Source of the DNA: Candidatus Foliamicus sp. | GTDB lineage: Bacteria; Pseudomonadota; Gammaproteobacteria; Steroidobacterales; Foliamicaceae | Length of the DNA stretch: 64,000 nt | Direction of reading: 5' to 3' | Assembly (NCBI GenBank): GCA_965238055.1 | Contig: OZ250178.1 | Span: 3,209,394-3,273,393 of the forward strand | Part shown: piece by piece, positions 36,985 through 58,052 of the stretch | Numbering within the stretch: position 1 is the stretch's first letter | How the letters are laid out: every line of letters starts with the position of its first letter | Notes under the pieces: model-generated | What the model saw: the letters and a program-made list of their open reading frames with translations, nothing else | Database searches by the model: none | What the model was told of the DNA's origin: nothing | Made by a program: the position numbers and the translations under genes

Positions 36985-38899
36985 CCCGAGTTTGACACTT
37001 CCTCATACATATTGGGGCGTTGAGGGTAATGCGGGCGTAGGAAAATCAACCACTTACGGCCTTTGGGACTGGATATTCGGCTCTAAACACATAGATACAT
37101 GTATTTGCGGTTGAAGTATTGTGATGGTTCGACATATCTGGCATCATTGGATACATGTACCTGCGCCAGTCCACGCAAAAGCGCGCCGACGGCTCGACCC
37201 TCCGCCACCTGCAGATCGCCGAGAACGTCTGGGACCCGGTCAAGAAGCGCTCCCGGGTGCGCATCCTGTACAACTGCGGGCGCGCCGACGACCCCAAGGC
37301 GGCCGAACGGCTGCGGCGCCTGGCGCGCAGCATCCTAAAGCGTTGCTCGCCTGAAGAACTCGTGGCCGCCGGTCCGGCGCTTACGATCGCCGACGCTTGG
37401 CCGTACGGGGATGTATACGCGCTACAGCGGCTGTGGGAGCGGGCCGGGCTGCCGGAGTTGATCGCCGAACAGGCGGATCCGGGCAAGTTCGAGTTCTCCG
37501 TCGAGCGGGCGCTGTTCGCGATGGTCGCCAACCGGGCTTTGGCGCCGTCGTCGAAGCTGCATTGTCATCAACAGTGGCTGGCCGAGGACGTCCGCATCGA
37601 GGGCTGCGGGGAGTTGGAGTTGCATCATCTGTACCGGGCGATGGACTTTCTACACGAGCGCAAGACGGTCCTGGAGGAAGGCTTGTATTACCGGGTGGCG
37701 GACCTGCTCAACCTGGACGTGGAGTTGGTGTTCTACGACACCACCTCGCTGCATTTTGAGATCGCGGACGAAGATGGCGGGGATCCCGAGGCGGGCAGGG
37801 TGCCGCTGCGCAAGCGGGGGCATTCGAAGAACGGCCGGGGCGACGCGCCGCAGGTGCTGGTGGGTCTGGCGGTCACGCGCGAGGGCTTTCCGGTGCGCCA
37901 CTGGGTGTTTCCGGGCAACACGGTGGACGTAAGCACGGTGGCGCGGGTCAAGCGGGATCTCAAGGGCTGGCGGCTGAACCGCTGCGTGTTCGTGGGCGAC
38001 GCCGGGATGGTCTCGGCGGAGAACCTGAAGGCGTTGGCGCGCGGCGGCGGGCGCTATATCGTTTGCATGCCGGTTCGCCGCGGCGGGGAGGCGGACCAGG
38101 TGATTGGTCGCCGGGGGCGCTACCGCGAAGTGGCGAAGAACCTGCAGGTCAAGGAGGTTGTGGTCGGCAAGGGCGAGCGGCGGCGGCGGTACGCGGTGTG
38201 CTTCAACCCCCGCGAGGCCGAGCGCCAGCGCCGCCATCGGGCGAAGGTGCTGGCGGAGTTGGAAGCCGAACTGGCTTCGCTACGCCCGAGCGATGGCGGC
38301 CACCGCAAGCGGGTGTGCGAACTGCGCGCCAGCGGGCGCTATGGGCGCTACCTCCGGCTGACGAAGACCGGGCTTGCGCGGATCAGCCGGGCCCAGGTCA
38401 AGGCGGCCGAACGCTTGGACGGCAAGTTCGTGGTGCACAGCAACGACGACACGCTCGGCGCCGAGGACCTGGCCCTGGGCTACAAGCAACTGCAGCGCGT
38501 CGAGCAGGCCTGGCGGCGCCTCAAGAGCGGGCTTGGGCTGCGCCCGGTGCATCACCACGCCGAGCGCCGCATCCGCGCCCATGTCGCGCTGAGTGTGATC
38601 GCCTTGCTGCTGGAACGCATGGCCGAGCACGCCTGCGGGGATACCTGGCGCAACATCCGCGACGATCTCAAGCAAATAAAACTGGTTCAATTGTCGGGGC
38701 CCAACGGCGCCTTGTGGCAGCTGACCGAACCCCGCCCGGACGCGTCCAAGCGTCTGAAATCCTTACGCATTCCCCCTCCGCCCACGATCTTGAAACTGGG
38801 CTGAACCCCTAGTGACATGGCCTTTTGCGCCAACGTGCGCAACCGATTGATTTGCCTGCGCAAATTAGAAATACGTATCTATGAAGTGTCAAACTCGGG
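36985..38899 (+). mobile_element. IS1634-family insertion sequence (1,915 bp), apparently intact
   Basis: Perfect 17-bp terminal inverted repeats CCCGAGTTTGACACTTC (36985-37001 and the reverse complement of 38883-38899). 5-bp target duplication TCAAA (36980-36984 and 38900-38904). Single 549-aa transposase ORF. Confidence 0.9.
37155..38804 (+). CDS. IS1634-family (IS4-like) transposase
   Basis: MYLRQSTQKRADGSTLRHLQIAENVWDPVKKRSRVRILYNCGR is a typical IS1634-family N-terminus. DDE-type core (VFYDTTSLHFE ... VFVGDAGMVSAENL ... GYKQLQRVEQAWRRLKSGL). Confidence 0.85.
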   Translation: MYLRQSTQKRADGSTLRHLQIAENVWDPVKKRSRVRILYNCGRADDPKAAERLRRLARSILKRCSPEELVAAGPALTIADAWPYGDVYALQRLWERAGLPELIAEQADPGKFEFSVERALFAMVANRALAPSSKLHCHQQWLAEDVRIEGCGELELHHLYRAMDFLHERKTVLEEGLYYRVADLLNLDVELVFYDTTSLHFEIADEDGGDPEAGRVPLRKRGHSKNGRGDAPQVLVGLAVTREGFPVRHWVFPGNTVDVSTVARVKRDLKGWRLNRCVFVGDAGMVSAENLKALARGGGRYIVCMPVRRGGEADQVIGRRGRYREVAKNLQVKEVVVGKGERRRRYAVCFNPREAERQRRHRAKVLAELEAELASLRPSDGGHRKRVCELRASGRYGRYLRLTKTGLARISRAQVKAAERLDGKFVVHSNDDTLGAEDLALGYKQLQRVEQAWRRLKSGLGLRPVHHHAERRIRAHVALSVIALLLERMAEHACGDTWRNIRDDLKQIKLVQLSGPNGALWQLTEPRPDASKRLKSLRIPPPPTILKLG

Positions 38900-42242: not shown

Positions 42243-42563
42243 CTAACGGCTCAAACGGGCGCTTACAAGACGATTCAGGCTAATTCCCTCCTCGGCAGCC
42301 TTGAGAGCCAGGTCGCGATGAGTTTCCGGCGGTAAGCGCACGACAAACTTGCCACTAAATACACGGTCTGCAAGGGGCTCGGGAGGCGCTTCGCCCGCCC
42401 CCCGCAAGTCGGCCAGCACTTCACCTACCACCTTCCGAATGCCAGCCAGCGCTTCACCCGGAGTGGCAGCAAGCCAACTCAGCGAAGGAAACTCTGCACA
42501 AAGGCCCACGTGCTCTCGGTCTTCGGCAGACCAGGTAACTCGGTAGGTGTAGTGGTCAGACAC
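42243..42563 (-). CDS. hicB: HicB-family antitoxin with RHH-type C-terminus
   Basis: From GTG: VSDHYTYRVTWSAEDREHVGLCAEFPSLSWLAATPGEALAGIRKVVGEVLADL...FSGKFVVRLPPETHRDLALKAAEEGISLNRLVSARLS. The GTG start overlaps the hicA stop (GTGTCTGA). Confidence 0.8.
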   Translation of the reverse strand: MSDHYTYRVTWSAEDREHVGLCAEFPSLSWLAATPGEALAGIRKVVGEVLADLRGAGEAPPEPLADRVFSGKFVVRLPPETHRDLALKAAEEGISLNRLVSARLSR

Positions 42564-42793
42564 TGCGTTTCTCCAACTCTTCAATTGCTTTAAGTACCTG
42601 CCGAACCTGATACGCCTTCGCCATTCCACGCTTGTTTTGAATGTTCACTCTCGGATTCCCTGGCCAGGGGGGTACGGTAAATCCTGTGACTTGATCCTGT
42701 CTGCCGAGGCTCTCCGAAATACTCATCGCATAATTTGCACAGATCACGAAAGCGAATTCCATTCGGGTTCCGTCGTAGCGTATCCAGATCCAT
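42556..42793 (-). pseudogene. hicA: HicA-like toxin with a +1 frameshift in a C6 (plus-strand G6) homopolymer
   Basis: MDLDTLRRNPNGIRFRDLCKLCDEYFGEPRQTGSSHRIYRTP in one frame. WPGNPRVNIQNKRGMAKAYQVRQVLKAIEELEKRSV in the next. The two join if one G of GGGGGG at 42667-42672 is removed. Confidence 0.7.
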
Positions 42794-43160
42794 GGGCGTC
42801 TCCCTACGCCCTTTTATGATACCACTATTGATACTAGTGTGATATCCTGCAATTAACTTTGATTGAACTGCGACGTGTTTCTCCTTCCCGGCAAGGCTAG
42901 ACAACGCAGTGTGGCAGGCTCCACGTAAGGAGGAGCAACGCCGCCGGAGACGAAAAAGTACGGCAGATAAGTGGAGGTATTTGAGGGACATCACTTGGCA
43001 TGAGTTTTCGCCGTACAGTAACGAGCATAGGTATATTCGGCTCATTATTAGGCCAGTTAATCACCATTTATGAGCCGAATAGGACTTTGTTGACTGATCG
43101 GCATCCAGCGAGCAAATGCGCTGTGCAAAGACGCGGCGCCTATCGTTTGGCTTCGTTGTC

Positions 43161-43196
43161 CGCCTTCGCCGAGGGCGGGACGCCCTCACTCCCAGG
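43161..43196. repeat. REP-like element
   Basis: CGCCTTCGCCGAGGGCGGGACGCCCTCACTCCCAGG. Confidence 0.75.
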
Positions 43197-43312
43197 ACTG
43201 GGATCCGAAAGTATCTGTTTGACAGCACACCAGGTTAGCGCCTGGTATCCACCAATTCGCGGCCCTTCCTCCCACACTACCTGCAAAATCAAGAAACCTT
43301 CCCAAATTCCCG

Positions 43313-44419
43313 TCACGGCCAGTCGCGGGATACGCTCACAAAAGAACCACGCGATCGGGAAGACAGCATCCAGTAGAAGCCGGTCGCCTCCGGGTCACCG
43401 TCCATCGGATAGAAGATCACGTTGATCGGAATACGCGGTGGCAGGTCACGCACCGCCCGGTCAAAGTGGCGCACTCTCGCTCGGGAATCCACCCAGCCCA
43501 CACGCGAAGGCGGGCTGGCGCCCTGGGTGGGGAGTCCGTCAGTCAGCAGGAATACGTTGTCCGGCAACGGTTCCATGGCTCGAATCGCGCGTACGGCCGC
43601 GTGCATGCTGGTGCCGCCTTTGGGCGCATAGATCCGCAATGCTTCGACAGCTTCGGCTACGCGACTTCCGTCAGCCACGCTCAGCCACGCGCCATCGGTG
43701 TCTTCCAGGATGCTGCCATGCTCCTCGCCGTAGACATAGATCTGAAACTGCTGCTGCGGGTTCAGGCGCGTCGTGATCCATTCCACGGATTCGACCGCCT
43801 GCCGCCATTTGGGCGCACGCGGCTTCAGTTCCTCATCCATCAGGCGAAACCGCAACACGTCGATATAGGTGCGCCCCAGCATGCTGGCGGAAGCGTCCAG
43901 CAGGATCAGCACCCGATCGCCACCCATCTTCATCCCCGTCAGGTATTGCCGGGTCCCCTGCCCTTCAAAACTCCCGATGCGGCGTCCCGTGCCCTCCTCC
44001 GTTGCGGCGATCTGCGCCTCCAACCCCTCCTGCATTTCCTTGAGCCGGTCGACGTCGGCCCGAAGTTTCTCAATGGACTCCTGGCTTTGGGCGCCCAGCC
44101 GCTCATATTGCGCCAGTTCCGTCAGCAGAGCCGCCAATCGCTCCTTCAGCTTGCGTAGTTCCTCGATAGCAGCCGCACGCTGGTCTTCCAGTGTGTCCCG
44201 TTCCCCGCGCATTTGCAGCAGGTCCTTGCGACCATCAAGGACTTCCTCTTCCAGGCGCGTGGACTCGCTGAGCAGGTCGATCCGCTGCGCGTCGGCCCGC
44301 AGCCGCACCTGCGCGTTGATGATTACAAAGAACAGAACTACCGCGCCGAACCCGCAGGAAATGATGTCCAGAAACGACATGCTGAAGACGTGAAACGGCC
44401 TACGAGCCATCGCCCACAA
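43313..44419 (-). CDS. ExbD/MotB-like single-pass membrane protein fused to a coiled coil and a vWA domain
   Basis: N-terminal TM helix with an acidic residue (MSFLDIISCGFGAVVLFFVII). About 110 aa of heptad-rich sequence (LEEEVLDGRKDLLQMRGERDTLEDQRAAAIEELRKLKERLAALLTELAQYERL...). vWA with MIDAS residues (VLILLDASASM, KGGTSM, FLLTDGLP). Overlaps the upstream gene by 20 nt. Confidence 0.75.
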   Translation of the reverse strand: MWAMARRPFHVFSMSFLDIISCGFGAVVLFFVIINAQVRLRADAQRIDLLSESTRLEEEVLDGRKDLLQMRGERDTLEDQRAAAIEELRKLKERLAALLTELAQYERLGAQSQESIEKLRADVDRLKEMQEGLEAQIAATEEGTGRRIGSFEGQGTRQYLTGMKMGGDRVLILLDASASMLGRTYIDVLRFRLMDEELKPRAPKWRQAVESVEWITTRLNPQQQFQIYVYGEEHGSILEDTDGAWLSVADGSRVAEAVEALRIYAPKGGTSMHAAVRAIRAMEPLPDNVFLLTDGLPTQGASPPSRVGWVDSRARVRHFDRAVRDLPPRIPINVIFYPMDGDPEATGFYWMLSSRSRGSFVSVSRDWP

Positions 44420-45818
44420 CCTCGCGTATCACCAGAAAATCCACCGGCCCCACGCCAACCACATCGCCTCCCCGCAAAGGAGCGGATTCCGCAACCGGCG
44501 CACCATTCAGCCTGGTGCCGTAGCGGCTGTGATCGTGCAGAACAGCCTGTCCGTTTTCCATTACCACAGTGCAGTGGTTGCGGGAGATTCCTGCCTCCGG
44601 CGACAGCACGATCGCCGACCCTCCGGGCTGTGGGGAGGAACCCAGCCACAAGCCGATCTCATTGATTCGCCAGGCTCTTCCTCCCTGAACCAGGTGGGTC
44701 GGTGCTTGCGCCGCCCGCTGGCGATTAACCGTCGCGAACGATTCCGCTGCACCGGTATCGGACTCAATGAACCGCGAGATCGCCGGTTCGCTCAGCCCGT
44801 CACTTGCAGGCAGAGAGCGCAACAGCACGTAATGGTCTTTCGTCTGCCTGCGAAGCCCGAAGCGTGCAAGGGCGCCCAAGGCCGCCGCGCCCGGCTGCAG
44901 CACATGCACCTCCGCGGAAAGCAAGCGAGCAAGCACCGCGGCGCAACCGGGAGCAGCGGCCAGCGTTCCCGACACCCTGATCTCCGCCGATTGCGCACCG
45001 GTGCACACCGAGCGCAGTTGATTGCCCAATGGCGCCAATTGCTTTTCCAGCGCGGAAATGAAATCACTTCGGAGCAGGACTGCCGAAGCCGGAATAGATG
45101 CGCCACTGAGTTCGACTTCCAGCTCGCCCGACGACATCACGGCCTCCAGCCATGGCTGGAGCTGATTGGCAAGTTGTTGCTCGGTGGCAGGCAGATCCAG
45201 CGGATCAAAGCGCGAGGCAGCGATAAAGCGCCCGGCTACGAAGGTGGTCATTGCAGCGCGTAAATGACGCAGCCCGGGACGCCCGTTGAACAGGACTTCC
45301 GCCGAGTTGATCCTTTCACCATCGCTTTCAAGCCGCGTGACAACGATGCGCTCGGCTGTGGTCTCGACGTGCACGCAGGCGCCGTTTCCACGAATACCGC
45401 GCACAGCGGCGACCCCGCTCTCCACCAGGCCAGCGATGGGAACTTTTGCTTCTTCGGCTATACCGAGAAGCAGCGCCAGCCGGTTGTCTCCCGCACTCGC
45501 AGGAACCACCAGGATTACGCCGTCAATGGAATCAACCGCTTTTCGGAATCGGTCCCACAGCTCCTCAAGCTGACCATGCGCCAGATCGGCGTAGCTGCGA
45601 AAACCCCGTACGGGCCGAGGCAGCGGCTCGTCCGACAGCAGTTCCCAGTAGTTGTCGTAACTCTGACCGGGATTCAGCCTGGACTGCTCGGCCGCCTCGT
45701 GGCCAAAACGAACCCGGCGCTTCTCCACCAGCGCGATACCCGGCTCATTGAACAGCACGCCCTGCGCAGAGGCGCCCACCAGCGCCGCACCGTTAACCTC
45801 AAGGGCGACCTGCGCCAT
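44400..45818 (-). CDS. Hsp70/actin-like (degenerate) protein with C-terminal FHA domain
   Basis: GVILVVPASAGDNRLALLLGIAEEAKVPIAGLVESGVAAV resembles the Hsp70 VITVPAYF...AGL.V.R.INEPTAAA segment, but the N-terminal phosphate-1 motif is ALEVNGA. The C-terminal GLWLGSSPQPGGSAIVLSPEAGISRNHCTVVMENGQAVLHDHSRYGTRLNGAPV is a canonical FHA domain. Confidence 0.7.
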   Translation of the reverse strand: MAQVALEVNGAALVGASAQGVLFNEPGIALVEKRRVRFGHEAAEQSRLNPGQSYDNYWELLSDEPLPRPVRGFRSYADLAHGQLEELWDRFRKAVDSIDGVILVVPASAGDNRLALLLGIAEEAKVPIAGLVESGVAAVRGIRGNGACVHVETTAERIVVTRLESDGERINSAEVLFNGRPGLRHLRAAMTTFVAGRFIAASRFDPLDLPATEQQLANQLQPWLEAVMSSGELEVELSGASIPASAVLLRSDFISALEKQLAPLGNQLRSVCTGAQSAEIRVSGTLAAAPGCAAVLARLLSAEVHVLQPGAAALGALARFGLRRQTKDHYVLLRSLPASDGLSEPAISRFIESDTGAAESFATVNRQRAAQAPTHLVQGGRAWRINEIGLWLGSSPQPGGSAIVLSPEAGISRNHCTVVMENGQAVLHDHSRYGTRLNGAPVAESAPLRGGDVVGVGPVDFLVIREVVGDGS

Positions 45819-45833
45819 GCCGGAGCGCGGTCG

Positions 45834-46631
45834 TTAGTCGCCCTGCAGGCGCCGAATCAGCCGGTCGTCGCAGTAGTCGGAGGTCTCGAACACCAGGCGC
45901 TCCTGCAGCAATTGCAGTTGATGAACCAGGAACATGATGAATATGCTTACGAGCAACGCAAAGAACGTGGAATTGAAGGCGATGCCCAGGCTCTCGGTCA
46001 CCCCGCTGATATCGCCTTCCACGGCTCGATAGGCAAGCGTCAGCGCCTGACCGATTCCACGCACCGTTCCAATGAAGCCTATCGAGGGTATGGCCCAGGC
46101 GATATACCGAATCATGGACAACTCGGACTCGAGACGCTCGGCCTCGGCATTCACGAGTGTCTGGGTAGCCGAGGACACATCCTGCACGCTTCCCGTAGCG
46201 CCGAACCTCTGCAAAGCGCTCAACAGCACCCGCGGCAAGAGCAGCCGCTGCTGAGACTCAGGCAGCGCCCGCAACTGGCGCGCGTGCTCGCGCGTGTCCT
46301 CCGGAAGAATCCGCACCCCTTCCGCAAGAGGCAGAAGATCACGCTGCAACAGCGAGCGTTCCCGCAAAGCCCCGCGCGTCTTATAGCCCATGATCGCCAG
46401 CGCCCAAAGCGCCAGGATCAGGCAGGCTTCCTGCTCAAAATCGCGCACGATCACGTACAGGGACCGCTCCGGCACGTAGTCCGCTTCCTGCTCCAGTCGA
46501 ATCTGCTGCTCTTCCATGACCGCATTGGCCTGCGGACGTATCCAGGCCACGTACATCGCGTGCACCAGGATCACCGACAGGAACAGCGAGAACAGCTGAA
46601 ACACAAATTCGACCGGTAATTGTCTTCTCAT
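45834..46631 (-). CDS. MotA/TolQ/ExbB proton-channel family protein
   Basis: Three TM segments. C-terminal signature MIRYIAWAIPSIGFIGTVRGIGQALTLAY...LGIAFNSTFFALLVSIFIMFLVHQL. Confidence 0.8.
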   Translation of the reverse strand: MRRQLPVEFVFQLFSLFLSVILVHAMYVAWIRPQANAVMEEQQIRLEQEADYVPERSLYVIVRDFEQEACLILALWALAIMGYKTRGALRERSLLQRDLLPLAEGVRILPEDTREHARQLRALPESQQRLLLPRVLLSALQRFGATGSVQDVSSATQTLVNAEAERLESELSMIRYIAWAIPSIGFIGTVRGIGQALTLAYRAVEGDISGVTESLGIAFNSTFFALLVSIFIMFLVHQLQLLQERLVFETSDYCDDRLIRRLQGD

Positions 46632-46668
46632 CGGCTTTCGTCCATTTCTGATTCAAGCACGGCCTTGG

Positions 46669-47097
46669 TCACGCGGCTCTGTCTCTTATAACCAAGCCAC
46701 GTCCCACAGCGCGCAATGCCTTCTCGATCTGGCCGATATGAGAGCGATGCGCCGGATTCAGCAGTTTGCGAACCGCGCTTTCGCTGAGTCCCAAACGGCG
46801 CGCCAAAGCAACTCGGCTTAGTCCCTTCCGGCTCATGGCCGTATAGAGCGCTGATTTGGCGGCAATGACCGGCGGAACGGCAACAAGAGTCTGTCCTTCA
46901 GCTGCCGGACTCGGAATGGGGATGTGTTCCCTGCTACTCATATATACGCCCAAAACCGCCACCAGAGCGTCTTCCGCCATTGCCAATGCATGTGCCCGAT
47001 CATTGCCGCAGGTTATCGCTTCCCGAAAATCCGGGAAGCTGACGGAATAGCCGCCATCTCTTTCGGGCGCCAATTCGCAAGGATAGGCGTACTGCAT
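46669..47097 (-). CDS. hicB: HicB-family antitoxin with C-terminal XRE-type HTH
   Basis: MQYAYPCELAPERDGGYSVSFPDFREAITCGNDRAHALAMAEDALVAVL...SRKGLSRVALARRLGLSESAVRKLLNPAH. The ORF is open a further 33 codons upstream (see next feature). Confidence 0.8.
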   Translation of the reverse strand: MQYAYPCELAPERDGGYSVSFPDFREAITCGNDRAHALAMAEDALVAVLGVYMSSREHIPIPSPAAEGQTLVAVPPVIAAKSALYTAMSRKGLSRVALARRLGLSESAVRKLLNPAHRSHIGQIEKALRAVGRGLVIRDRAA

Positions 47098-47196
47098 CAG
47101 AAATCCTCCTTTCCCTCGTCGCGGATCAAAATGAAAGGTCTTGCCGACTCTCCTGGCGTGCCTCCTGGCCCGTCTGACGAATTCCCTTCCGTCCAT
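47098..47196 (-). pseudogene. hicA: HicA-like toxin N-terminal remnant fused in frame to hicB
   Basis: MDGREFVRRARRHARRVGKTFHFDPRRGKG resembles the first ~30 aa of HicA toxins up to the KG of the KGSH motif. It then reads GFL and runs straight into the hicB Met. The catalytic His region and the C-terminal half are absent. Confidence 0.55.
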
Positions 47197-47240
47197 GTGG
47201 CCATTTTCGCACCTTTAGGTACGACCAGGCAAGGCGATTG

Positions 47241-47753
47241 TCAACGTGGTGCGCGAGGGGTAAGAACTCGGCGAAGGTAAGCGCTGCCTGCCGCCCAGTC
47301 CGTAGTTCTCGGAGACTTGGAGAACTCGAGTTCCGCTACCGCGCAGGTAGGAAACTTGCCGTGCAAGATCGCGAAAGCATCTTCTTCACCATCGCCGGCA
47401 AGGTAGAGGGCCAGCTCCTGCAATGCCGGGTTGTGCCCCACGACCATGATGTCACCCGGATCTTCACGCAGTTCGCGCAGGCACTGCAGGACGGCGCCAG
47501 GGCTGAAGGTATACAGACGGTGCAACACGTGCACGCTGAGGTCCGCGGGGAGCCAGGGCAAGACCCCGCACATCGTTTCCACGGCTCGCCGGCCTGCAGA
47601 GCACAGCACCCTTGTCGGCTCGCAGCCGATGGACGCGAGTTTCTCGCCCATGGCCGGCGCGTTTCGCCGGCCGCGTGGAGCGAGCTCCCGGCCGAAGTCG
47701 TCCGAGGAATAGGGTCCGGCCTTGGCGTGACGAAGCAACCACAGTCGCGTCAT
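47241..47753 (-). CDS. sixA: Phosphohistidine phosphatase SixA (histidine phosphatase superfamily)
   Basis: MTRLWLLRHAKAG (RHA motif), RRAVET and MVVGHNPALQEL. 170 aa. Confidence 0.85.
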   Translation of the reverse strand: MTRLWLLRHAKAGPYSSDDFGRELAPRGRRNAPAMGEKLASIGCEPTRVLCSAGRRAVETMCGVLPWLPADLSVHVLHRLYTFSPGAVLQCLRELREDPGDIMVVGHNPALQELALYLAGDGEEDAFAILHGKFPTCAVAELEFSKSPRTTDWAAGSAYLRRVLTPRAPR

Positions 47754-47760
47754 GACTATG

Positions 47761-47955
47761 GGTGGGAGGGCGTCACGCCTTCCACAAGAAAAATTCTTGC
47801 TGCATTTCGAGGGCGGGGACGCCCTCGTTCCCAGGCGTTTCGAGGGCGGGGACGCCCTCGTTCCCAGGCGTTTCGAGGGCGGGGACGCCCTCGTTCCCAG
47901 GCGTTTCGAGGACGGGGACGCCCTCGTTCCCAGCGGGGGACGCCCACGTTCGCAG
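47761..47955. repeat. Tandem array of REP-like units (4 x 33 bp plus degenerate flanking units) in the sixA/ppk divergent intergenic region
   Basis: TTTCGAGGGCGGGGACGCCCTCGTTCCCAGGCG repeats head-to-tail starting at 47805, 47838, 47871 and 47904 (the fourth is slightly diverged). Degenerate units lie at 47761-47785 and 47937-47955. Confidence 0.9.
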
Positions 47956-48034
47956 CTTTCGTTGACTACTCATGGGTCCTGTATGCTACTCCGATCATGG
48001 AGCACATTCCACGCTGCCTGGGAGCCCTCGTCTG

Positions 48035-50239
48035 ATGCCGCCGCAAAGTCAACCGCGAGCGCTCAGCGAGGCGGAACGCGCCGGGGGCCGGCTGATCAAC
48101 CGGGAGTTGTCCTGGCTGGAATTCAACACCCGGGTGCTGGAGGAAGCCGGCAACGAGAACCATCCGCCCCTGGAACGGGTGCGGTTTCTGTCCATATCGG
48201 CCAGCAACCTGGACGAGTTCTACATGGTGCGTGCCGCAGGCCTCATGGCCCAGGTGGCTGCTGGCGTCACCAAAACCAGCGACGACGGACTGACGCCCGG
48301 CGAACAGCTTCAAGCAATACGCGAACAGGTCAAGAAGCTCCTCAATGCCCAATCGAAGCGCAGCGTGCAGTTGCTGGCGGACTGCCGGGAAGCCGGCGTT
48401 TCGGTGGTAACGCCCGAGGAATTAGGCAACCGGGCTCGAGAGTGGCTGTCCGGATGGTTCGAGAAGCAGTTGTTCCCGATCCTTACCCCGCAAGCGGTCG
48501 ATCCAGCGCACCCCTTTCCGTTCATTCAGACCGGCTGTCTCGTGCACGTGCTACGGCTCATGCGGCCATCGGGCAAGAATGAGATCAATGGCCTGGTTCT
48601 GGTTCCACCGCAGATTGAGCGTTTCGTGCGGATACCCGGCAAGGCTCTGCGTTTCGTGGCCGTCGAGGAAATTATCGCGCGCAACTTCAGGCACCTGTTC
48701 CCGGGCATGGAAATCCTGGGCCACGGAATATTCCGCATCAGCCGTGACAGTGACCTGGAGATCGACGAGGAAGCCGAAGACCTGGTGCGAACGTTTGAAA
48801 CCGCCCTGCTGCGCAGGCGCAGAGGTAACGTCATCCGAGTGGAAGTGGCGGCAGGTATGCCGAAGAACTTCCGCAGATTCGTACTCAAGGCCTTCAACGC
48901 CTCACATGCGCATGTCTTCAACATTGACGGCTTGCTGGGCCTGGCCGACATCAAGCAGATCATCACCGATCAGCGCCGCGACCTGCAGCACGAGCCGCTG
49001 AACGCGCGCTACCCGGAGCGGGTGCGCGAATATGGCGGCGACATCCTGGCGGCCATCCGCGCCAAGGACTTCGTGGTGCAGCATCCATACGAGAGTTTCG
49101 ACGTGGTGGTGCAATTCCTGCGCCGCGCCACCGACGATCCGGCAGTCGTCGCAATCAAGCAGACCTTTTACCGCACCTCGGAGGACTCACCGATCGTAGA
49201 GGCGCTGATCGCAGCCGCCGAATCCGGAAAGCTGGTCACCGCCATGGTTGAACTCCGGGCGCGTTTCGATGAAGCGGCAAACATCCGCTGGGCCCGCGAG
49301 ATGGAGCGGGCGGGCGTCCAGGTGGTGTACGGCTTTGTGGAAATCAAGACCCATGCCAAAGTTTCGCTGGTGGTTCGGCGCGAGGCCGGAGAGTTACGCA
49401 CCTATACCCACTTCGGCACCGGTAACTACCATCCCGTCAACGCACGCGTTTATTCCGACTTGAGTTTCTTCACCTGTGATGCGGCCCTCGGACGGGACAC
49501 CGCGCGCCTTTTCAATTACATGACCGGCTACGCAACGCCCGAGGTCATGGAAAAGCTGGTTTACGCACCCGCTCAACTGAAAAACACCCTGGTAGAACTG
49601 ATCGAGGACGAAATCGCCCATGCGCGGTCCGGCCGTCCTGCGGAGATCTGGGCCAAGCTGAATTCGCTTGTCGATCCCGAGATCATCGACGGTCTCTATC
49701 TGGCAAGCCAGGCCGGCGTGCGAATCGAACTTTACGTGCGCGGTATCTGCTGCCTGCGTCCCGGCGTGCCCGGCATGTCAGAGAATATCCAGGTGCGCAG
49801 CATGATCGGGAGGTTTTTGGAGCACTCGCGCATCATGTGTTTCGGCGCCGGCCACAAGTTGCCGTCTACCCAGAGCAAGGTTTTTATCTCTTCCGCGGAC
49901 TGGATGCCCCGCAACCTGCACCATCGCGTCGAGACGCTGGTGCCGGTCGAAAACGAAACGGTCAAGCGGCAGCTTGTCGAACAGGTCATGATGGCCAATC
50001 GCTTCGATGTCATGCAAAGCTGGCAGCTGGGTCCGGATGGCGCCTATCAACGCCTTCCCCATGAGCCCGGCGATTTCAGCGCCCATACCTGGTTCATGAC
50101 CAACCCAAGCCTTTCCGGCCGTGGCAGCGCCCTGAGCGAATCGCGCCCCGCCATGCCGGGCGAGTTGTTTTCCGGAGCAGGAGAAACCACCGCCACGGAA
50201 GGCAAACCCCGACCCACCCTGGTCAAAACCGCCGTCTAA
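48035..50239 (+). CDS. ppk: Polyphosphate kinase 1
   Basis: From MPPQSQPRALSEAERAGGRLINRELSWLEFNTRVLEEA... Full-length PPK1 with both PLD-like HKD-type regions (HAKVSLVVRRE, FLEHSRIMCF). The ATG at 48035 is preferred because the track start at 47972 abuts the REP array. Confidence 0.93.
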   Translation: MPPQSQPRALSEAERAGGRLINRELSWLEFNTRVLEEAGNENHPPLERVRFLSISASNLDEFYMVRAAGLMAQVAAGVTKTSDDGLTPGEQLQAIREQVKKLLNAQSKRSVQLLADCREAGVSVVTPEELGNRAREWLSGWFEKQLFPILTPQAVDPAHPFPFIQTGCLVHVLRLMRPSGKNEINGLVLVPPQIERFVRIPGKALRFVAVEEIIARNFRHLFPGMEILGHGIFRISRDSDLEIDEEAEDLVRTFETALLRRRRGNVIRVEVAAGMPKNFRRFVLKAFNASHAHVFNIDGLLGLADIKQIITDQRRDLQHEPLNARYPERVREYGGDILAAIRAKDFVVQHPYESFDVVVQFLRRATDDPAVVAIKQTFYRTSEDSPIVEALIAAAESGKLVTAMVELRARFDEAANIRWAREMERAGVQVVYGFVEIKTHAKVSLVVRREAGELRTYTHFGTGNYHPVNARVYSDLSFFTCDAALGRDTARLFNYMTGYATPEVMEKLVYAPAQLKNTLVELIEDEIAHARSGRPAEIWAKLNSLVDPEIIDGLYLASQAGVRIELYVRGICCLRPGVPGMSENIQVRSMIGRFLEHSRIMCFGAGHKLPSTQSKVFISSADWMPRNLHHRVETLVPVENETVKRQLVEQVMMANRFDVMQSWQLGPDGAYQRLPHEPGDFSAHTWFMTNPSLSGRGSALSESRPAMPGELFSGAGETTATEGKPRPTLVKTAV

Positions 50240-50265
50240 CTGATTATTTTCAGGACACGACACTA

Positions 50266-51759
50266 GTGCCGGGCGTACTGCGAACCAGCCCCGCCACCCC
50301 AAGCGAGGCGCCGGTAGCTGTGATCGACGTGGGCTCGAACTCGGTTCGGCTTGTTGTGTACGAGAATGGCGGGCGGGCGCCGCTGCCGATCTTCAACGAG
50401 AAGGTCTTGTGTGGATTGGGCCGTGGGCTCGACCGCACTGGCAGGCTGCCCGAACGGGGCATTCGCAAGGCCCTCGAAAGTCTGCATCGTTTTGCGCTGC
50501 TATGCCCGCGAATGGGCGTTCGTGAAGTGCAGGCAGTAGCCACCGCTGCGGTTCGCGAAGCGAGTAACGGCCCGGAATTCCTGAAGATGATTCACAAGGA
50601 ATGCGGCCTCGACGTGCGCTTGCTTACAGGCGATCAGGAAGCGCAACTGTCCGCCGGCGGCGTGTCAAGCGCTATTCCGCTGGCAAGCGGCCTGGCCGCC
50701 GACCTTGGCGGCGCCAGCCTGGAATTGACGCGGTTAAACGCGGGGCAATTGACGGAACGCCAGTCCCTGCCGCTTGGAACAGTTCGCAGGAACGGAGACC
50801 AATCGCTTGCGGAAAGCAGGCAGACCGTCAAGGATCGACTCCGCAAGATGAACTGGCTGCAACAGGCGCGCGGGCAGTCACTCTATCTGATCGGCGGTTC
50901 CTGGCGGGCGCTGGCGCGCATTCACATGGACGAGACTGACTACCCGCTGCATGTCATACACCACTACGCGCTGGACTCGCGAAGCGCCTCTGAATTCTGC
51001 GCAAGACTAGCCGGCTGGTCGCATGAACAACTGAAGTCCGCAGAGGGCTTGCGTGCCGACCGGCTCGAAACGCTGCCGTACGCGGCTATCGTTCTGGACT
51101 GTCTCCTGGAGATGTCCGGAGCCGGCGAGGTGGTGTTTTCCGCGAATGGCTTGCGCGAGGGGTGCTTGTTTGAAGCTCTGACACCACTCGAGCGCGGAAT
51201 TGACCCGCTCCTTGCTCTTTGTGGGAATGCTGCCCGGCGCATGGGCCGGGGCGTCTCCGATGGTGAATTCCTGTCCGACTGGATCGTACCGGCAGTAGAC
51301 GGAGTTGTACCGGGAAAGCTGCTACTGGCCGCCTGCCACCTGTCGGACATCGGCTGGTCCGAGCACCCGGATTACCGCGCCGAGCAGGTCTTCCTGCGCA
51401 TATTGCGGATGCCGTTGACCGGCGCCGATCATCGTGAGCGGATCATGCTGAGCCTGGCCGTCGCTTCCCGCCACTCCGCGATGCAACCAACGCTCAAGCG
51501 TCTCCGCCTTGACAAACTGCTGAGCAAGGAACAAAAGCGGCAGGCTGCCAGCGTCGGCCTGGCGATGCGTCTCGCCTACACAATCTCAGGCGGCGCCGTA
51601 AGCATTCTTAAGCAATTCCACCTCAAGCGAGAACGTGAGAGACTGCTATTGGTGGGGCCGGAGGGCGCGCACATCCTGGTCGGCAATACGGTCCAGCGCC
51701 GCCTGCGCGTCCTGGCCGAAAATCTGGACCTGGATCACGAAATACTGCTTCGCGCGTAA
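50266..51759 (+). CDS. ppx: Exopolyphosphatase (Ppx/GppA family)
   Basis: AVIDVGSNSVRLVVYE, AVATAAVREASNG and DLGGASLEL motifs. GTG start 27 nt after ppk. Confidence 0.9.
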   Translation: MPGVLRTSPATPSEAPVAVIDVGSNSVRLVVYENGGRAPLPIFNEKVLCGLGRGLDRTGRLPERGIRKALESLHRFALLCPRMGVREVQAVATAAVREASNGPEFLKMIHKECGLDVRLLTGDQEAQLSAGGVSSAIPLASGLAADLGGASLELTRLNAGQLTERQSLPLGTVRRNGDQSLAESRQTVKDRLRKMNWLQQARGQSLYLIGGSWRALARIHMDETDYPLHVIHHYALDSRSASEFCARLAGWSHEQLKSAEGLRADRLETLPYAAIVLDCLLEMSGAGEVVFSANGLREGCLFEALTPLERGIDPLLALCGNAARRMGRGVSDGEFLSDWIVPAVDGVVPGKLLLAACHLSDIGWSEHPDYRAEQVFLRILRMPLTGADHRERIMLSLAVASRHSAMQPTLKRLRLDKLLSKEQKRQAASVGLAMRLAYTISGGAVSILKQFHLKRERERLLLVGPEGAHILVGNTVQRRLRVLAENLDLDHEILLRA

Positions 51760-51882
51760 CCGTTTCCGTAAGGTTCCCTCAAGCCAAAGCTGATAGATTC
51801 GGCCCATAAGAGCGGATGGGGATTGTTGCTGCAAAGTTGGCAACCCTTGAATCCATCAATCTATCAAGTACTTGGGAGACTC

Positions 51883-54837
51883 ATGATTATGCGAAAAAGA
51901 TTTCAGAATCGCTGGATAGCAATCTTACTGCTGGCGCTCGCAGCTCCGGCATTGGTCCTTGCACAAGACATAGACGAAGAGGCCGAGGAGGAAGATCAAG
52001 CGGCGACCGCGGTGGAAGACGAAGCGCTGGAACTGCGCGGCCAAACGGTCACCGGCTCGCGGCTGGTCGGGGGCGATCCGTCCGCGCGGGTATATAGCCT
52101 TTCGGCGGAGGACATCGCCACGCGTGGCGTATCAAATCTGGAGGAATTGTTTCGCACCCTGCCTTGGGCATATTCTTCCCTGACCTCACAGACGAACGGC
52201 TCCTTCACCTTCGCCGCTGCAGACACCGACGTAAGCCTGGGCGCCTTGGGATTGGGCACTTCCACGGTCAATCTGCGCGCTTTGGGGTCCGCCAACACGC
52301 TTGTGCTGCTGAACGGCCGGCGAATTGCAGGGGCGGCCGGACGCGAGGACGACTTTGCCAATCTCCTGAACATTCCCCTATCCGCAATCGAACGGGTCGA
52401 TATTCAGCTTGACGGCGCGTCGGCAGTCTACGGCGCCGACGCCATCGGCGGCGTTGTGAACTTCATCACGAAGAAGGACTATAGGGGATTTGCCGCCACC
52501 CTTCGCCAGGAATTAAGCGCGACGGACGCAGATCGCAGAAATATCAGTTTGCTGGGTGGATATGCCTGGCTCAGCGGGAACATAACCGCAACTGCATCGC
52601 AAGACCGATCAGAGCCAATCAATAATCGCAAAATTTGGACGAGCAGCGACTTCCGTGATCTATATGGTCCGGAATTCGACAACCGATCGACCTCCATCAC
52701 TCAACCCGGCACCGTATGTGACTGGAACTACGGGAGCACCCAATACGGAGCCAACTGCGCTTTCCGTGCTCCCAAACTGCAGTTGCCCACCACGCACAAC
52801 GGGGTAGGCGCAACTGAGGCGGATTTCACCACTGATATTACCCCCGCGGACTATGTAGCGCCGCAAAACGGAGAGGACTCCACGGTCACCTCGTTCTCCG
52901 TGCGGATTGAACAGTATCTTACGGACTCACTGAGGGTTTACGCGGACGTGCTGATTTCCGATGCGGAGTCGTATCAGGAATTCCCTACTCGACTCATTAA
53001 CTACCTGATTCCCGCCAGCAACGCCTACAACCCCTTTGGGCGTCATGTCGTGGTCAATTATTACCCGATTCATGAGATCGAGAACGGCATCATTCCTTCA
53101 AGCTACACGGATAGCGAGAACAAGCAGCGAAATTACAATGCCGGGATTTTGTGGGAATTCGGAGACGGCCACCAGTTTCAGTTCAACCTGACCCGGTCCG
53201 AGTCCGAACGCGCCGCCAAGCAGGTTCGCACGGATTGGCGCCGTAGCCGATTCGATCCAGGCCAGGAGGCCTTCTACGCAGCTCTGGCAAGTTCTGATCC
53301 GAATGTTGCGCTGAATCTGTTTGGCGACGGAACAGTCCAAGGGTCGGCATTTGCGGAACTCTTTACGAATGCAGTAGGTCCAAGCCTTGGTTTTACGGAG
53401 GTCACATCCTACGATGCCCTGGTGCGCGGCGAAGTGTTTGAGATTTGGGGCGGACGCGTCAGCTACGCGCTCGGCGCCGAATACCGCGAAACGGCGATAT
53501 GGAGTCACTCATTGGGGTATGGGGAAGGCGGAACCCAGGAAGCAAGGCTCGGACGGGAGGATTTTATCGGCGTCAACAAACCTACGCGGGACTCAAACGC
53601 CTATTTCGCTGAGTTCGCACTTCCGCTGGTTGGCGATAGGAACGCAAGGCCTGGACTGCAATCCCTGGTGTTGAGTTTGCAAGCGCGGCGCGACACACAC
53701 AAAGCTATAGGCGCTCTGGGCGGGGAAAGCCGGGAATTTCGGTTCGATCTTACATCCACATATTGGGACTACCGGCCTGATGAAGGATGGGTTGAGCGCA
53801 CAAGATCCGGTCAGAATGTCTATTCAGGCGACCCGGAACTGGGCGAAATTACAAGAAGCGCCACAAGCCCGCGCGTTGGCCTGCAATACAAGCCGGTTGA
53901 GAGCTTTACCGTTCGGTCCGCGTGGTCGCGCTCTTTTACACCGCCTGTTTTTAGCGATTTGTTCGATGTAGGCGATCCGAGTTCTCGCACTCAAATGTAC
54001 GTTGATCCCTACCACCCGGAAGGTGTTACGGATCAAATTCCGATTCCGTATTTCTTCGGCGGGCCCAGCCCGGAAATCAAGAACGAGTATTCCGACAATT
54101 TTTCGCTGGGCTTTGACTGGAATTCCGAATCCATCCCGGGCTTGGCCTGGACGGTTGATTGGGTGCGCGTTGACTTCACCAACAAGATCGACTCTGCATT
54201 CGCACTTCTAACCAACTATCCTGAGATAGCCTTCAATCTGCCTGGCATAGTCAAGCGGGACGAGAACGGGTACGCCGCTCAGATCATAGCAAACCAGGTC
54301 AATGTAGCGGAGAAAATCAATGAAACGCTGGACACCTCTATCCAGTACACCTTTAACACGTCACTGGGGGTGTTCACCCCGCGACTCAGCTACCATCGAG
54401 TTCTCAATGAGTTTTATCGCATCAGCCCCGAGACTGAACCTCAAGCGCGTGTTGGAACCGCCTTGGGAAGCGACAGATACAAGCTGACGGGCTACCTCAG
54501 CTGGACTTTCGGGCGCATCGCCGCGGATCTATTCGTGCGCTATACGCCGAGTTACACGAATGACCGTACGGGTATGTGTCCATACGGACGGGTAGTAGGA
54601 CGCTGTGACGATCCTTTTGATTTTCGTGCGACAAAGCCATCCATTGAAATGGATCCCATGACTACGGTAGACCTGACAGTGACCTACAGCATGGACAACG
54701 GCCTGCGAATCCGAGCGGGTGGGCGGAACATCTTCGACGCGGACAATCCTACCGTCTGGGAAAGGCTTCCCTACGATCCGACCCGTTGGGATGCGCGTGG
54801 GCGGGTGCTGTATCTGGAATTGAAGTACGAGAGGTAA
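51883..54837 (+). CDS. TonB-dependent receptor
   Basis: MIMRKRFQNRWIAILLLALAAPALVLAQD signal, plug (LELRGQTVTGSRL...VNLRALGSANTLVLLNGRR...GASAVYGADAIGGVVNFITKK), and a barrel ending GRVLYLELKYER. GGAG lies 4 nt upstream of the ATG at 51883. Confidence 0.9.
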   Translation: MIMRKRFQNRWIAILLLALAAPALVLAQDIDEEAEEEDQAATAVEDEALELRGQTVTGSRLVGGDPSARVYSLSAEDIATRGVSNLEELFRTLPWAYSSLTSQTNGSFTFAAADTDVSLGALGLGTSTVNLRALGSANTLVLLNGRRIAGAAGREDDFANLLNIPLSAIERVDIQLDGASAVYGADAIGGVVNFITKKDYRGFAATLRQELSATDADRRNISLLGGYAWLSGNITATASQDRSEPINNRKIWTSSDFRDLYGPEFDNRSTSITQPGTVCDWNYGSTQYGANCAFRAPKLQLPTTHNGVGATEADFTTDITPADYVAPQNGEDSTVTSFSVRIEQYLTDSLRVYADVLISDAESYQEFPTRLINYLIPASNAYNPFGRHVVVNYYPIHEIENGIIPSSYTDSENKQRNYNAGILWEFGDGHQFQFNLTRSESERAAKQVRTDWRRSRFDPGQEAFYAALASSDPNVALNLFGDGTVQGSAFAELFTNAVGPSLGFTEVTSYDALVRGEVFEIWGGRVSYALGAEYRETAIWSHSLGYGEGGTQEARLGREDFIGVNKPTRDSNAYFAEFALPLVGDRNARPGLQSLVLSLQARRDTHKAIGALGGESREFRFDLTSTYWDYRPDEGWVERTRSGQNVYSGDPELGEITRSATSPRVGLQYKPVESFTVRSAWSRSFTPPVFSDLFDVGDPSSRTQMYVDPYHPEGVTDQIPIPYFFGGPSPEIKNEYSDNFSLGFDWNSESIPGLAWTVDWVRVDFTNKIDSAFALLTNYPEIAFNLPGIVKRDENGYAAQIIANQVNVAEKINETLDTSIQYTFNTSLGVFTPRLSYHRVLNEFYRISPETEPQARVGTALGSDRYKLTGYLSWTFGRIAADLFVRYTPSYTNDRTGMCPYGRVVGRCDDPFDFRATKPSIEMDPMTTVDLTVTYSMDNGLRIRAGGRNIFDADNPTVWERLPYDPTRWDARGRVLYLELKYER

Positions 54838-55103: not shown

Positions 55104-55490
55104 TCAGATGTCGGTGGGAAAGAGGATGGGGTTGTCTGCCGACAGGGGTTCCGAAGGGGTGAACTCTTCCAGGACTTCGTCGCTCTGAAGGGCTTCCTCG
55201 ATTCGGGCCAGGTCTTCTTCGATTGAGATGACTTCGGCGGAGAGTTCCGGCGGTGGGGGCGACTCGCCTTCGGTTTCTGGTTCCGTGTTCGAGGGCGAGA
55301 CGCCCTCGTTCCCAGGGGAGGTGGACTCATTCCCGGCCGAGGGCGAGACGCCCTCGTTCCCAGGGGATTGCTCTTCGGCACGTGCTGATTCTTGTTGCGA
55401 GAAGCCCAGCCAGCCGCCTAGCTGATCGGCAGCCCAGGTCAGGCCGACGGCCAGTCCGATTATGGCAATAACTCCGAATACCTTCTTCAT
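55104..55490 (-). CDS. Small acidic membrane-anchored or secreted protein whose coding frame contains REP units
   Basis: N-terminal MKKVFGVIAIIGLAVGLTWAA hydrophobic segment. The ATG overlaps the stop of the upstream gene (ATGA at 55487-55490). The middle part, SPGNEGVSPSAGNESTSPGNEGVSPS, is the translation of REP units. Confidence 0.5.
   Translation of the reverse strand: MKKVFGVIAIIGLAVGLTWAADQLGGWLGFSQQESARAEEQSPGNEGVSPSAGNESTSPGNEGVSPSNTEPETEGESPPPPELSAEVISIEEDLARIEEALQSDEVLEEFTPSEPLSADNPILFPTDI
55289..55366. repeat. Two REP-like units lying inside the 55104-55490 ORF
   Basis: TCGAGGGCGAGACGCCCTCGTTCCCAGGGG (55289-) and CGAGGGCGAGACGCCCTCGTTCCCAGGGG (55338-). Confidence 0.85.
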
Positions 55491-57907: not shown

Positions 57908-57944
57908 GTCTCAATCGCCAGTCAACAAGGACGCGTGTGTCTTC

Positions 57945-58030
57945 CCTGGGAACGAGGGCGTCCCGCCTTCCCTTGGAACGAGGGCGTCTCGCCCTCGGCG
58001 AAGGCGGGGACGCCTTCGGTCCCAGCGGGG
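57945..58030. repeat. REP-like element cluster between the kinase and the FHA-FGE gene
   Basis: CCTGGGAACGAGGGCGTCCCGCCTTCC, CTTGGAACGAGGGCGTCTCGCCCTCG and GCGAAGGCGGGGACGCCTTCGGTCCCAGCGGGG. Confidence 0.85.
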
Positions 58031-58052
58031 CTATCCGGCACATTGCTCGGCA

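Follow-up and report, generated by a model that had tools for sequence, protein, structure and literature searches.

Only a few ion-driven motors of the 5:2 type are known, namely MotAB, ExbBD, TolQR, GldLM and ZorAB, and each of them has revealed a new use of the proton-motive force (PMF) outside the cytoplasm. ExbBD-TonB, TolQRA and GldLM of the type IX secretion system (T9SS) represent uses of such motors other than motility. A further class of putative motors, built from TolQ-like proteins and "TPH-vWA" (trans-pore-helix vWA) proteins, was described in 2025 with Idiomarina loihiensis as the seed (Mol Biol Evol 2025, Fig. 4c-d; PMC12204202). The TPH-vWA proteins, found in Proteobacteria, are encoded beside tolQ-like genes without tolR or exbD, carry a conserved Asp and occur predominantly as heterologous pairs, and AlphaFold3 models place two TPH-vWA helices in a TolQ-like pentamer with the Asp residues within the Thr ring (PMC12204202). 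This description is purely computational (PMC12204202) and took in only two of the approximately nine conserved genes considered below. In this study we analysed a 64,000-nucleotide stretch of DNA from Candidatus Foliamicus sp. (assembly GCA_965238055.1, contig OZ250178.1, positions 3,209,394 to 3,273,393), hereafter the window, in which three genes at 43313-46631 on the minus strand encode a MotA/TolQ/ExbB-like channel subunit (gene 1), an Hsp70-like/FHA protein (gene 2) and a membrane-tethered vWA protein (gene 3, vWA1). The trio belongs to a conserved cluster of nine genes, of which it makes up the 3' half, and on balance we are inclined to see it as the core and cytoplasmic adaptor of a PMF-driven 5:2-type envelope motor of the TolQ-like/TPH-vWA class, gated by a kinase, an FHA domain and an Hsp70-like domain. 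The original prediction, made from the sequence alone, had taken the trio as a three-gene operon and named Zorya as the only precedent for a stator in a non-motility role; the first view is not supported, the larger cluster being split in the window by an inserted block, and the second does not hold either, in view of the uses other than motility named above and of the TolQ-like/TPH-vWA pairing described in 2025. The kind of motor appears to be one recently proposed and experimentally untouched, and the system in the window appears to be a variant whose regulatory half is newly recognised.

The channel subunit encoded by gene 1 (45834-46631, minus strand, 265 aa) has about four transmembrane (TM) segments and matches Pfam MotA_ExbB (PF01618) with 53.5 bits against a cut-off of 22.9 (E=2.7e-14). 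Its hydropathy profile suggests four membrane segments and a cytoplasmic loop of about 90 residues, and the C-terminus extends for only about 25 residues beyond the last TM helix. In a profile alignment with E. coli TolQ (PDB 8odt), T189 and T222 of gene 1 pair with the pore-lining residues T145 and T178 of TolQ, and both are invariant across the MotA-like family. The NCBIfam TolQ score is only 27 bits, far under the cut-off of 221, and the NCBIfam ExbB score is also far below threshold. Identity among the MotA-like proteins is 55-98% over 85 loci and 55-69% between distant lineages. The cytoplasmic loop contains the motif I-L-P-E-D-T-R-E at residues 108-115, which is invariant in five reference sequences; over 86 MotA-like sequences the P of PEDTRE is conserved in at least 98% and T113 in 70-90%. 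We mention this motif as a candidate docking site or phospho-site. Gene 1 is predicted to form the pentameric ring of the motor.

Gene 3 (43313-44410, minus strand, 365 aa) encodes an N-terminal tail, a TM helix with Asp15, a helical stalk, a linker and a vWA domain with a metal-ion-dependent adhesion site (MIDAS). The three ORFs are no product of chance, as homologues at E<1e-100 number in the hundreds and dN/dS is 0.03-0.25. Homologues of gene 3 are nearly all 364-366 aa long and start with a conserved MARR, which places the beginning of the gene at the ATG at 44410 and not at the TTG at 44419. The overlap between genes 3 and 2 is accordingly 11 nt (44400-44410), not the 20 nt first proposed, and the internal Met quoted at that time is not the start either. 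The same 11-nt overlap recurs in two relatives, L003 and L004, suggesting translational coupling. The N-terminus consists of a 12-residue basic tail followed by a single strongly hydrophobic helix (residues 13-31) with the motif S-F-L-D-x-x-x-C-G-x-G, in which F13, L14, D15, C19, G20 and G22 are invariant among 60 homologues. Over 76 loci Asp15 is at least 90% conserved, and its counterpart in vWA2, a second vWA protein of the cluster, at least 98%. Asp15 lies three residues from the cytoplasmic end of the helix, with basic residues ahead of the helix, and its context of hydrophobic-hydrophobic-Asp-hydrophobic follows the same pattern as D23 of E. coli TolR (IVPLLD23VLLVLLLIF); no SHLS, the motif of TonB and TolA, is found in the helix. 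We regard this apparent likeness to TolR as one of pattern, position and topology and not of demonstrable homology, and gene 3 as the predicted dimeric axle of the motor. In the AlphaFold2 model (pLDDT 75 overall) the helix runs to residue 104 and is followed by a second helix (110-138) and a low-confidence linker, which gives a stalk of about 105 periplasmic helical residues (helical 21-138). Residues 166-360 form a confident alpha/beta vWA fold (pLDDT >90) that matches the vWA domains of ITIH1, BatB, CLCA1 and TEM8 (Foldseek E=2e-6) and also those of CMG2 and LapA. The MIDAS residues D172, S174 and S176 are invariant among the 60 homologues, in which T290 and D291 reach a conservation of at least 90%. 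At the sequence level, the Pfam VWA_2 score of the window protein (24.4 bits) stays under the cut-off of 27, and a search of the PDB with a profile of the vWA1 alignment retrieved coiled-coil proteins only, the vWA domain going undetected. The domain is too divergent for detection by sequence, so that a fold search was needed.

The product of gene 2 (44400-45818, minus strand, 472 aa), separated from gene 1 by 15 nt (45819-45833), is a predicted cytoplasmic adaptor with an Hsp70 nucleotide-binding-domain-like part (residues 1-340), a disordered linker (342-369) and an FHA domain (about 375-465). The FHA domain matches PF00498 with 39.3 bits (cut-off 20.7, E=9.1e-10) and aligns with the FHA domains of Rv0020c and GarA. 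Its residues S412, R413, H415, N438 and G439, which correspond to the phosphothreonine-binding S-R-x-H and N-G residues, are at least 90% conserved. The Arg that normally forms part of a G-R pair in FHA domains is not conserved. The N-terminal 340 residues have no Pfam match. In the AlphaFold2 model (mean pLDDT 87), however, they superpose on the nucleotide-binding domains of Hsp70/DnaK (Foldseek E=4e-15, target TM-score 0.64-0.73, identity 13-18%), and a profile of the gene 2 family retrieves Hsp70s by sequence as well (E=3.8e-5 and 9e-5). This weak but significant similarity is accompanied by clear differences from DnaK. At the position of GIDLGTT in E. coli DnaK the family has AxExNDAA, at DLGGGT it has DxxxH (VETTAE in the window protein), and the substrate-binding domain is absent, the FHA domain taking its place at the C-terminus. 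These alignments were made with HMMER and supplemented with Foldseek, as hhalign of the domain against a single DnaK sequence was uninformative. Since the glycine-rich phosphate loops are gone, the domain is more likely to serve as a scaffold than to hydrolyse ATP, and it is probably non-catalytic. It defines a family of its own, in which a threshold of E<=1e-10 leaves 927 cluster representatives and one of E<=1e-3 leaves 1,236; almost all are 440-475 aa long, a length that includes the FHA domain. Most of what the original prediction had said of the individual genes is confirmed by these results: three tightly packed open reading frames (ORFs) do lie on the minus strand with a 15-nt gap, the domain calls for all three hold by Pfam and by AlphaFold2 and Foldseek, the Hsp70-like body with a degenerate phosphate motif is borne out by the fold search and the DnaK alignment, and the Asp of the TM helix, whose conservation had been proposed as a check, is invariant in the homologues and largely so across loci.

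Another finding from this study is that the trio does not stand alone in other genomes. The MotA-like alignment was scanned against one genome per GTDB species, which revealed a relative in at least 576 genomes; the best 80 of these were classified by hidden Markov models (HMMs) of the components, and it was in these 80 that the cluster was examined. Distant homologues of genes 2 and 3 sit in a larger contiguous operon, with products of 355 aa or more and 421-480 aa of no assigned function, a kinase, a PEGA/FGE protein of about 800 aa, a small protein of about 100-120 aa and a last protein of 330-350 aa. The last protein, vWA2, is a diverged paralogue of vWA1 (24-32% identity) with both the SFLD helix and the DxSxS motif. 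The order of the cluster is lipoprotein, lipoprotein, Hanks kinase, FHA-like/TM/PEGAx3/FGE protein, small anchored protein, MotA, Hsp70-like/FHA protein, vWA1 and vWA2. Among the 63 loci with enough sequence 3' of MotA, vWA1 is present in all, the FHA protein in 59 and vWA2 in 56. Among the 48 loci with enough sequence upstream, the PEGA/FGE protein is present in all, the kinase in 47 and the lipoprotein of the 409-aa type in 45, and the cluster is contiguous in 40. No gene for ExbD, TolR or MotB was found in the clusters examined. The hosts are uncultured Woeseiaceae, Pseudomonadales, Chromatiales-type bacteria, Steroidobacteraceae and the sponge-associated order Ca. Foliamicales. The Hsp70-like/FHA gene, which otherwise lies between the two motor genes, is missing in L034, L048, L056, L061 and L085 (four of the 63 loci, five in all counting L034), where MotA is followed directly by vWA1 and vWA2; in L061 vWA1 starts only 12 nt after MotA. 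These loci keep the kinase and PEGA/FGE genes wherever the contig reaches. That the motor is retained where the FHA protein is missing indicates that this protein is an accessory regulator and not part of the motor core. The stator-type pairing put forward originally, of a MotA-like channel with a single-TM Asp partner and no ExbD, TolR or MotB gene, is upheld by these data, and the co-occurrence of the three genes, which had been left as a check, is found in nearly all loci. The idea that the system is read out through phosphothreonine is strengthened, because a Hanks-type Ser/Thr kinase, which had gone unnoticed in that prediction, is a near-constant member of the cluster.

In the window the 5' half of the cluster is located at 55104-62802 on the same strand as the trio. 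The kinase (58053-60365, 770 aa; Pfam Pkinase 7.4e-37) has a cytoplasmic catalytic domain (14-262), a TM segment (311-329) and a periplasmic part of about 440 residues that contains TPR-like repeats, the TPR_2 match of which (6.6e-5, 23.2 bits) is under the Pfam cut-off of 27. Downstream of it is the gene for a bitopic PEGA/FGE-sulfatase protein (55487-57907, minus strand, 806 aa), with a cytoplasmic N-terminus, a TM segment (152-170) and a periplasmic part of three PEGA stretches (5.8e-41) and a C-type-lectin-like FGE-sulfatase domain (1.4e-43). Residues 12-91, approximately, form a degenerate FHA-like domain that was missed by Pfam (hhalign against an FHA profile, 96.9%, E=1.5e-10) and lacks the S-R-x-H phosphothreonine-binding motif. 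The slot just upstream of MotA in contiguous clusters is held by a poorly conserved small acidic protein with an N-terminal hydrophobic signal anchor (55104-55490, minus strand, 128 aa in the window), identified by BLASTP to its counterparts in L003 and L004. The two lipoproteins are encoded at the 5' end. The second gene (60563-61792, minus strand) encodes 409 aa with the lipobox VGAC and a Gly-rich region at about 290-330, and shows 39-42% identity to its counterparts in L001 and L002 by BLASTP. The first gene of the cluster (61789-62802, minus strand) encodes 337 aa with the lipobox LAAC, a long repetitive linker rich in Gly and Ser, and a charged helix at the C-terminus, and weak HMM matches occur at the same position in 30 loci. 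In the DNA this linker corresponds to a tandem repeat of 42 nt (62348-62655, 6.5 copies with 92% matches), and this region likely varies in length. Some clusters have an extra lipoprotein gene after vWA2 (L001 11439-12251, L002 11630-12268), whose product ends in a Pro-rich tail; in about 12 loci of the Pseudomonadales type it lies upstream on the opposite strand, and the window has no copy. Pfam assigns no family to the 337-aa and 409-aa lipoproteins, the small protein or this post-vWA2 lipoprotein. As judged from their signals and topology, the parts of the cluster are distributed over cytoplasm, inner membrane and periplasm, and some of them are probably located at the outer membrane.

The canonical form of this cluster fits every published feature of the TPH-vWA class, and it is by these features, not by the seed sequence, that we place it there. 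In all 63 loci an inner-membrane-tethered vWA protein is tightly linked to a tolQ/motA-like gene without tolR, exbD or motB, the helix has the conserved Asp of SFLD and no SHLS, and vWA1 and vWA2 form a diverged pair in 56 of the 63, although not in the window or in its seven clade loci. Since PMC12204202 speaks of "predominantly" paired proteins, such pairing is not obligatory. In contrast to the published description, however, which does not mention the kinase, FHA, Hsp70-like, PEGA/FGE or coiled-coil stalk components, the clusters here have a gene between the motor gene and the vWA genes, and the copy in the window has one vWA gene only. Full-text literature searches for the domain combination and the host genus revealed no relevant description besides PMC12204202; the conflict systems with vWA and kinase components treated in PMC7159879 and PMC11090510 are unrelated. 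The layer formed by the kinase, the FHA protein with its Hsp70-like domain and the PEGA-FGE protein appears to be undescribed and newly recognised here.

The comparison can be extended to the better-studied relatives. Like ExbBD-TonB and TolQR-TolA, the locus encodes a channel of the family with both ring Thr residues and a partner with a single N-in TM helix that bears the counterpart of the essential Asp, and the energy of the proton gradient is presumed to be transmitted through the periplasm. It differs from them in that there is no separate TonB or TolA transducer, the long stalk and the head being borne by the B-type subunit itself, in that the head is a vWA/MIDAS domain and not an ExbD/TolR periplasmic domain or an OmpA-like peptidoglycan-binding domain, and in the presence of the kinase/FHA layer. 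Zorya ZorAB likewise puts a MotAB-type stator with a long coiled element to a non-flagellar purpose. In Zorya, however, the long tail is cytoplasmic and belongs to ZorA, while ZorB binds peptidoglycan (PMC12422006), whereas here the A subunit is only 265 aa long and the B-type subunit bears the stalk, which is periplasmic. ZorC, ZorD and ZorE are absent from every cluster examined and were not detected by PADLOC. An identity with Zorya was thus rejected, there being no long ZorA tail, no peptidoglycan-binding ZorB, no ZorC/D/E and a PADLOC ZorA score of only 12 bits.

The regulatory half has analogies of its own. In the threonine-phosphorylation pathway of the type VI secretion system (T6SS), which involves PpkA, Fha1/TagH and TagQRST, a membrane Hanks kinase that has a periplasmic domain acts together with lipoproteins and an FHA scaffold to gate the assembly or activity of an envelope machine. 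The same logic is found here, but there are no T6SS genes nearby and no PP2C phosphatase, and the FHA domain shares its polypeptide with an Hsp70-like domain; the NCBIfam TagH (TIGR03354) score of gene 2 is 25.7 bits, under the cut-off of 120.25. In the PilM-PilN system of the type IV pilus alignment complex, a cytoplasmic protein of the actin/Hsp70 superfamily is encoded just before a bitopic protein with a short, conserved N-terminal tail, a TM segment, a periplasmic coiled coil and a globular domain. The order of gene 2 and the bitopic gene 3, with its tail, TM segment, periplasmic helices and globular domain, resembles this by analogy only, as the top Foldseek matches of gene 2 are to Hsp70 nucleotide-binding domains and not to PilM or FtsA, and no pilus genes are found here.

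On the regulated-motor reading, five MotA-like subunits would form a ring, and the Asp-bearing N-terminal helices of two vWA proteins would be inserted in its pore, the axle being a vWA homodimer in the window genome and a vWA1/vWA2 heterodimer in most relatives. Proton flow via the Asp/Thr site would then turn the ring relative to the axle. The stalk may carry the MIDAS vWA heads toward the peptidoglycan or the outer membrane, where they would hold on to an acidic residue of some ligand, and the motor would pull or turn it. The two lipoproteins of the cluster, its small acidic protein and the PEGA/FGE protein are candidates for this ligand. Such a motor would probably not be constitutive. The kinase with its periplasmic TPR domain and the FHA-like/PEGA/FGE protein may sense an envelope or periplasmic cue and produce phosphothreonine, to which the FHA domain of gene 2 would bind. 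The ATPase-dead Hsp70-like domain would in this way be recruited to the motor on its cytoplasmic side, as a clutch, a brake or an assembly scaffold. The domain identities, the conserved residues, the topology signals and the tight gene linkage are observed, including the co-occurrence of MotA and vWA1 in 63 of 63 loci and their direct adjacency in the FHA-less variants; the 5:2 stoichiometry, the rotation, the ligand, the phosphorylated Thr and the direction of signalling are what we infer from them. More tentatively, and as a possibility that we would not yet call probable, we speculate that a phosphorylation-gated 5:2 rotary motor of a class not recognised before uses a coiled-coil axle, either rotating or anchored, with MIDAS-vWA grips at its tip to work on an outer-envelope ligand, with the kinase and an FHA-targeted, ATPase-dead Hsp70-like clutch in control. 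Our best guess for the physiological output is maintenance or remodelling of the outer membrane or cell surface, and not defence.

Several observations weigh against this interpretation. Neither the whole of gene 3 nor, at E up to 10, the isolated N-termini of gene 3 and vWA2 gave a Pfam match to ExbD, TolR or MotB; as no profile recognises the N-terminus of gene 3 in this way, the proposed role as an axle rests on a short motif, topology and linkage. No invariant Thr that could serve as a phospho-acceptor was found in the MotA loop, the kinase juxtamembrane region or the cytoplasmic linker of the FGE protein. T113 in the PEDTRE motif is conserved only to the extent given above (70-90%), and the kinase juxtamembrane region is not conserved. 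The conserved cluster includes no phosphatase. Finally, the copy in the window is without vWA2 and apart from its kinase half, so that co-regulation of the two halves is, for the window, an assumption.

If the fuller mechanism were true, it would be the first member of the MotAB/ExbBD/TolQR superfamily to be controlled by Ser/Thr phosphorylation, and it would represent a new use of the Hsp70 fold. Two features set the system apart: the presumed force-transmitting stalk and ligand-gripping head are on the B-type subunit itself, and the motor is genetically linked to eukaryote-like Ser/Thr signalling through an FHA/Hsp70-like protein. It raises the questions of how phosphorylation might switch a stator on and off and of what a periplasmic vWA/MIDAS head pulls on. 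As the cluster is kept in abundant, mostly uncultured Gammaproteobacteria of marine sediments and sponges, its function probably matters for the envelope biology of these bacteria.

The arrangement in the window is shared with its close relatives. The window genome is locus L005, and its clade, which is Foliamicales-like, comprises L004 and seven GTDB species-level loci (L006-L012). In the window the cluster is split by 8.5 kb, and all seven GTDB clade loci are also split. The inserted block (46669-54837, mixed strands), which is not part of the system, is made up of genes with Pfam matches: a HicB-like/HTH antitoxin gene between the SixA-like gene and MotA (46669-47196, minus strand), a SixA-like (His_Phos_1) phosphatase gene (47241-47753, minus strand), ppk (47972-50239, plus strand), ppx (50266-51759, plus strand) and a gene for a TonB-dependent receptor (51823-54837, plus strand). 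The ppk-ppx insert is also found in L004, to which the window genome adds the TonB-dependent receptor and the HicB-like gene. A gene of the SixA-like histidine-phosphatase superfamily lies just upstream of MotA in the window and in eight of the eight other clade loci checked (L004 and L006-L012), and in L004 (7268-7783) it overlaps the start of MotA; no such match was found in the other loci. Given that the conserved cluster has no phosphatase, the SixA-like protein could be a lineage-specific recruit, or it could be a hitch-hiker with ppk-ppx. vWA2 is absent from the window and from all seven GTDB clade loci. Despite the split and the loss of vWA2, all eight reading frames of the cluster are intact in the window, and the genes are under purifying selection in the clade, with dN/dS of 0.03-0.05 for MotA, 0.08-0.12 for vWA1 and 0.17-0.25 for the FHA protein (approximate values, dS being about 1-1.5).

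The main rival to a regulated motor is an envelope mechanosensor that signals inward, with a logic like that of Zorya but not necessarily for defence, and we regard it as unlikely, though clearly worth consideration. Here the vWA heads would be anchored to an envelope ligand, and a perturbation would cause proton flux and ring rotation that are read out by the Hsp70-like/FHA protein and the kinase. The parts list is identical, in MotAB and ZorAB it is as a rule the A-ring that rotates and the B-subunits that are anchored (PMC12422006), and the gene for the cytoplasmic adaptor lies between the two motor genes. However, the cluster has neither a cytoplasmic effector nor a transcription factor, the kinase and the FGE protein have large periplasmic sensor domains of their own, which fit an outside-in signal at the kinase better than one from the motor, and the motor persists in the five FHA-less loci. 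It seems improbable to us that the system is an engine for surface motility, adhesion or secretion in the style of Agl-Glt or GldLM/T9SS, driving a surface adhesin or transport, even though both gliding systems make use of vWA proteins (CglB, PMC9946355; the T9SS gliding vWA protein, PMC12422006), lipoproteins and a PEGA/lectin-like surface module are among the products of the cluster, and gliding is raised as a possibility in PMC12204202 itself. No Glt, Gld, Spr or T9SS genes occur in or beside the clusters, and the vWA domain is held at the inner membrane by the helix of the same protein, unlike an outer-membrane lipoprotein. We also know of no evidence for gliding in the hosts, which include sponge symbionts and sediment bacteria.

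The original prediction had favoured an accessory, possibly conflict-related role. In an anti-phage or other conflict system of this sort, a Zorya-like stator would sense infection and signal via the kinase and FHA domain. Ser/Thr kinase, FHA, vWA and FGE-sulfatase ("FGS") domains do recur in predicted conflict systems (PMC7159879), the kinase domain of the cluster resembles PD-T4-6 kinases, and toxin-antitoxin genes and an insertion sequence (IS) element flank the trio in the window genome. Such a role is nevertheless very unlikely in our judgement. The PADLOC match to ZorA is noise (E=0.018, 12 bits), the other PADLOC matches of gene 3 are weak (E of about 1e-3 and weaker) and fall within the coiled-coil stalk, and the remaining components have no specific match to a defence family, those of the kinase reflecting the generic catalytic domain only. 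There is no nuclease, NTPase or pore effector, and a search of 2.9 million viral contigs gave one match, at a contig end and uninformative. The rigid gene order in the best 80 of at least 576 genomes, the 55-69% identity of MotA between distant lineages and the purifying selection point away from an accessory conflict role as well. The setting among toxin-antitoxin and repetitive extragenic palindromic (REP) elements, which had been read as a sign of conflict, loses its force, because L004, a close relative, lacks the toxin-antitoxin genes, and copies of the REP-like element occur throughout the window; both are context and not parts of the system. That the window trio is a decaying remnant is still harder to believe. 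The 8.5-kb split, the loss of vWA2, the HicB-like insertion upstream of MotA and the REP-like copies in the small-protein gene would fit decay, but the eight intact reading frames, the same split and vWA2-less arrangement in all seven GTDB clade loci and the persisting purifying selection argue to the contrary. We therefore return to a regulated motor as the interpretation that we favour.

Several further features of the window were recorded. Downstream of gene 3 there is a HicB-family ORF with a small upstream ORF (42243-42762, minus strand), and an IS4-family (DDE_Tnp_1) transposase gene is located at 37155-38804 on the plus strand. L004, the one close relative whose flanks were read, has no HicB-like genes and no IS4-family transposase. 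A REP-like palindromic element with the core GGGAACGAGGGCGTCCC occurs at 22 sites over 1456-63750, compared with 0.07 expected by chance. Copies lie between genes of the cluster and on the 3' side of gene 3, two copies inside the small-protein gene (55297-55361) encode GNEGVSPS repeats, and a REP-like tandem array (33 nt x 3.9, 47805-47956) lies between the SixA-like gene and ppk. A scan of 42900-48000 for promoters and terminators gave matches at chance level. Giant eukaryote-like surface proteins are often reported in sponge symbionts, and outside the conserved cluster the window contains a giant ORF of 5,548 aa (8807-25453, minus strand) with ten LRR_8 stretches (E=3.6e-85), three Calx-beta domains (6.8e-67), a cadherin-like domain and an SWM_repeat domain.

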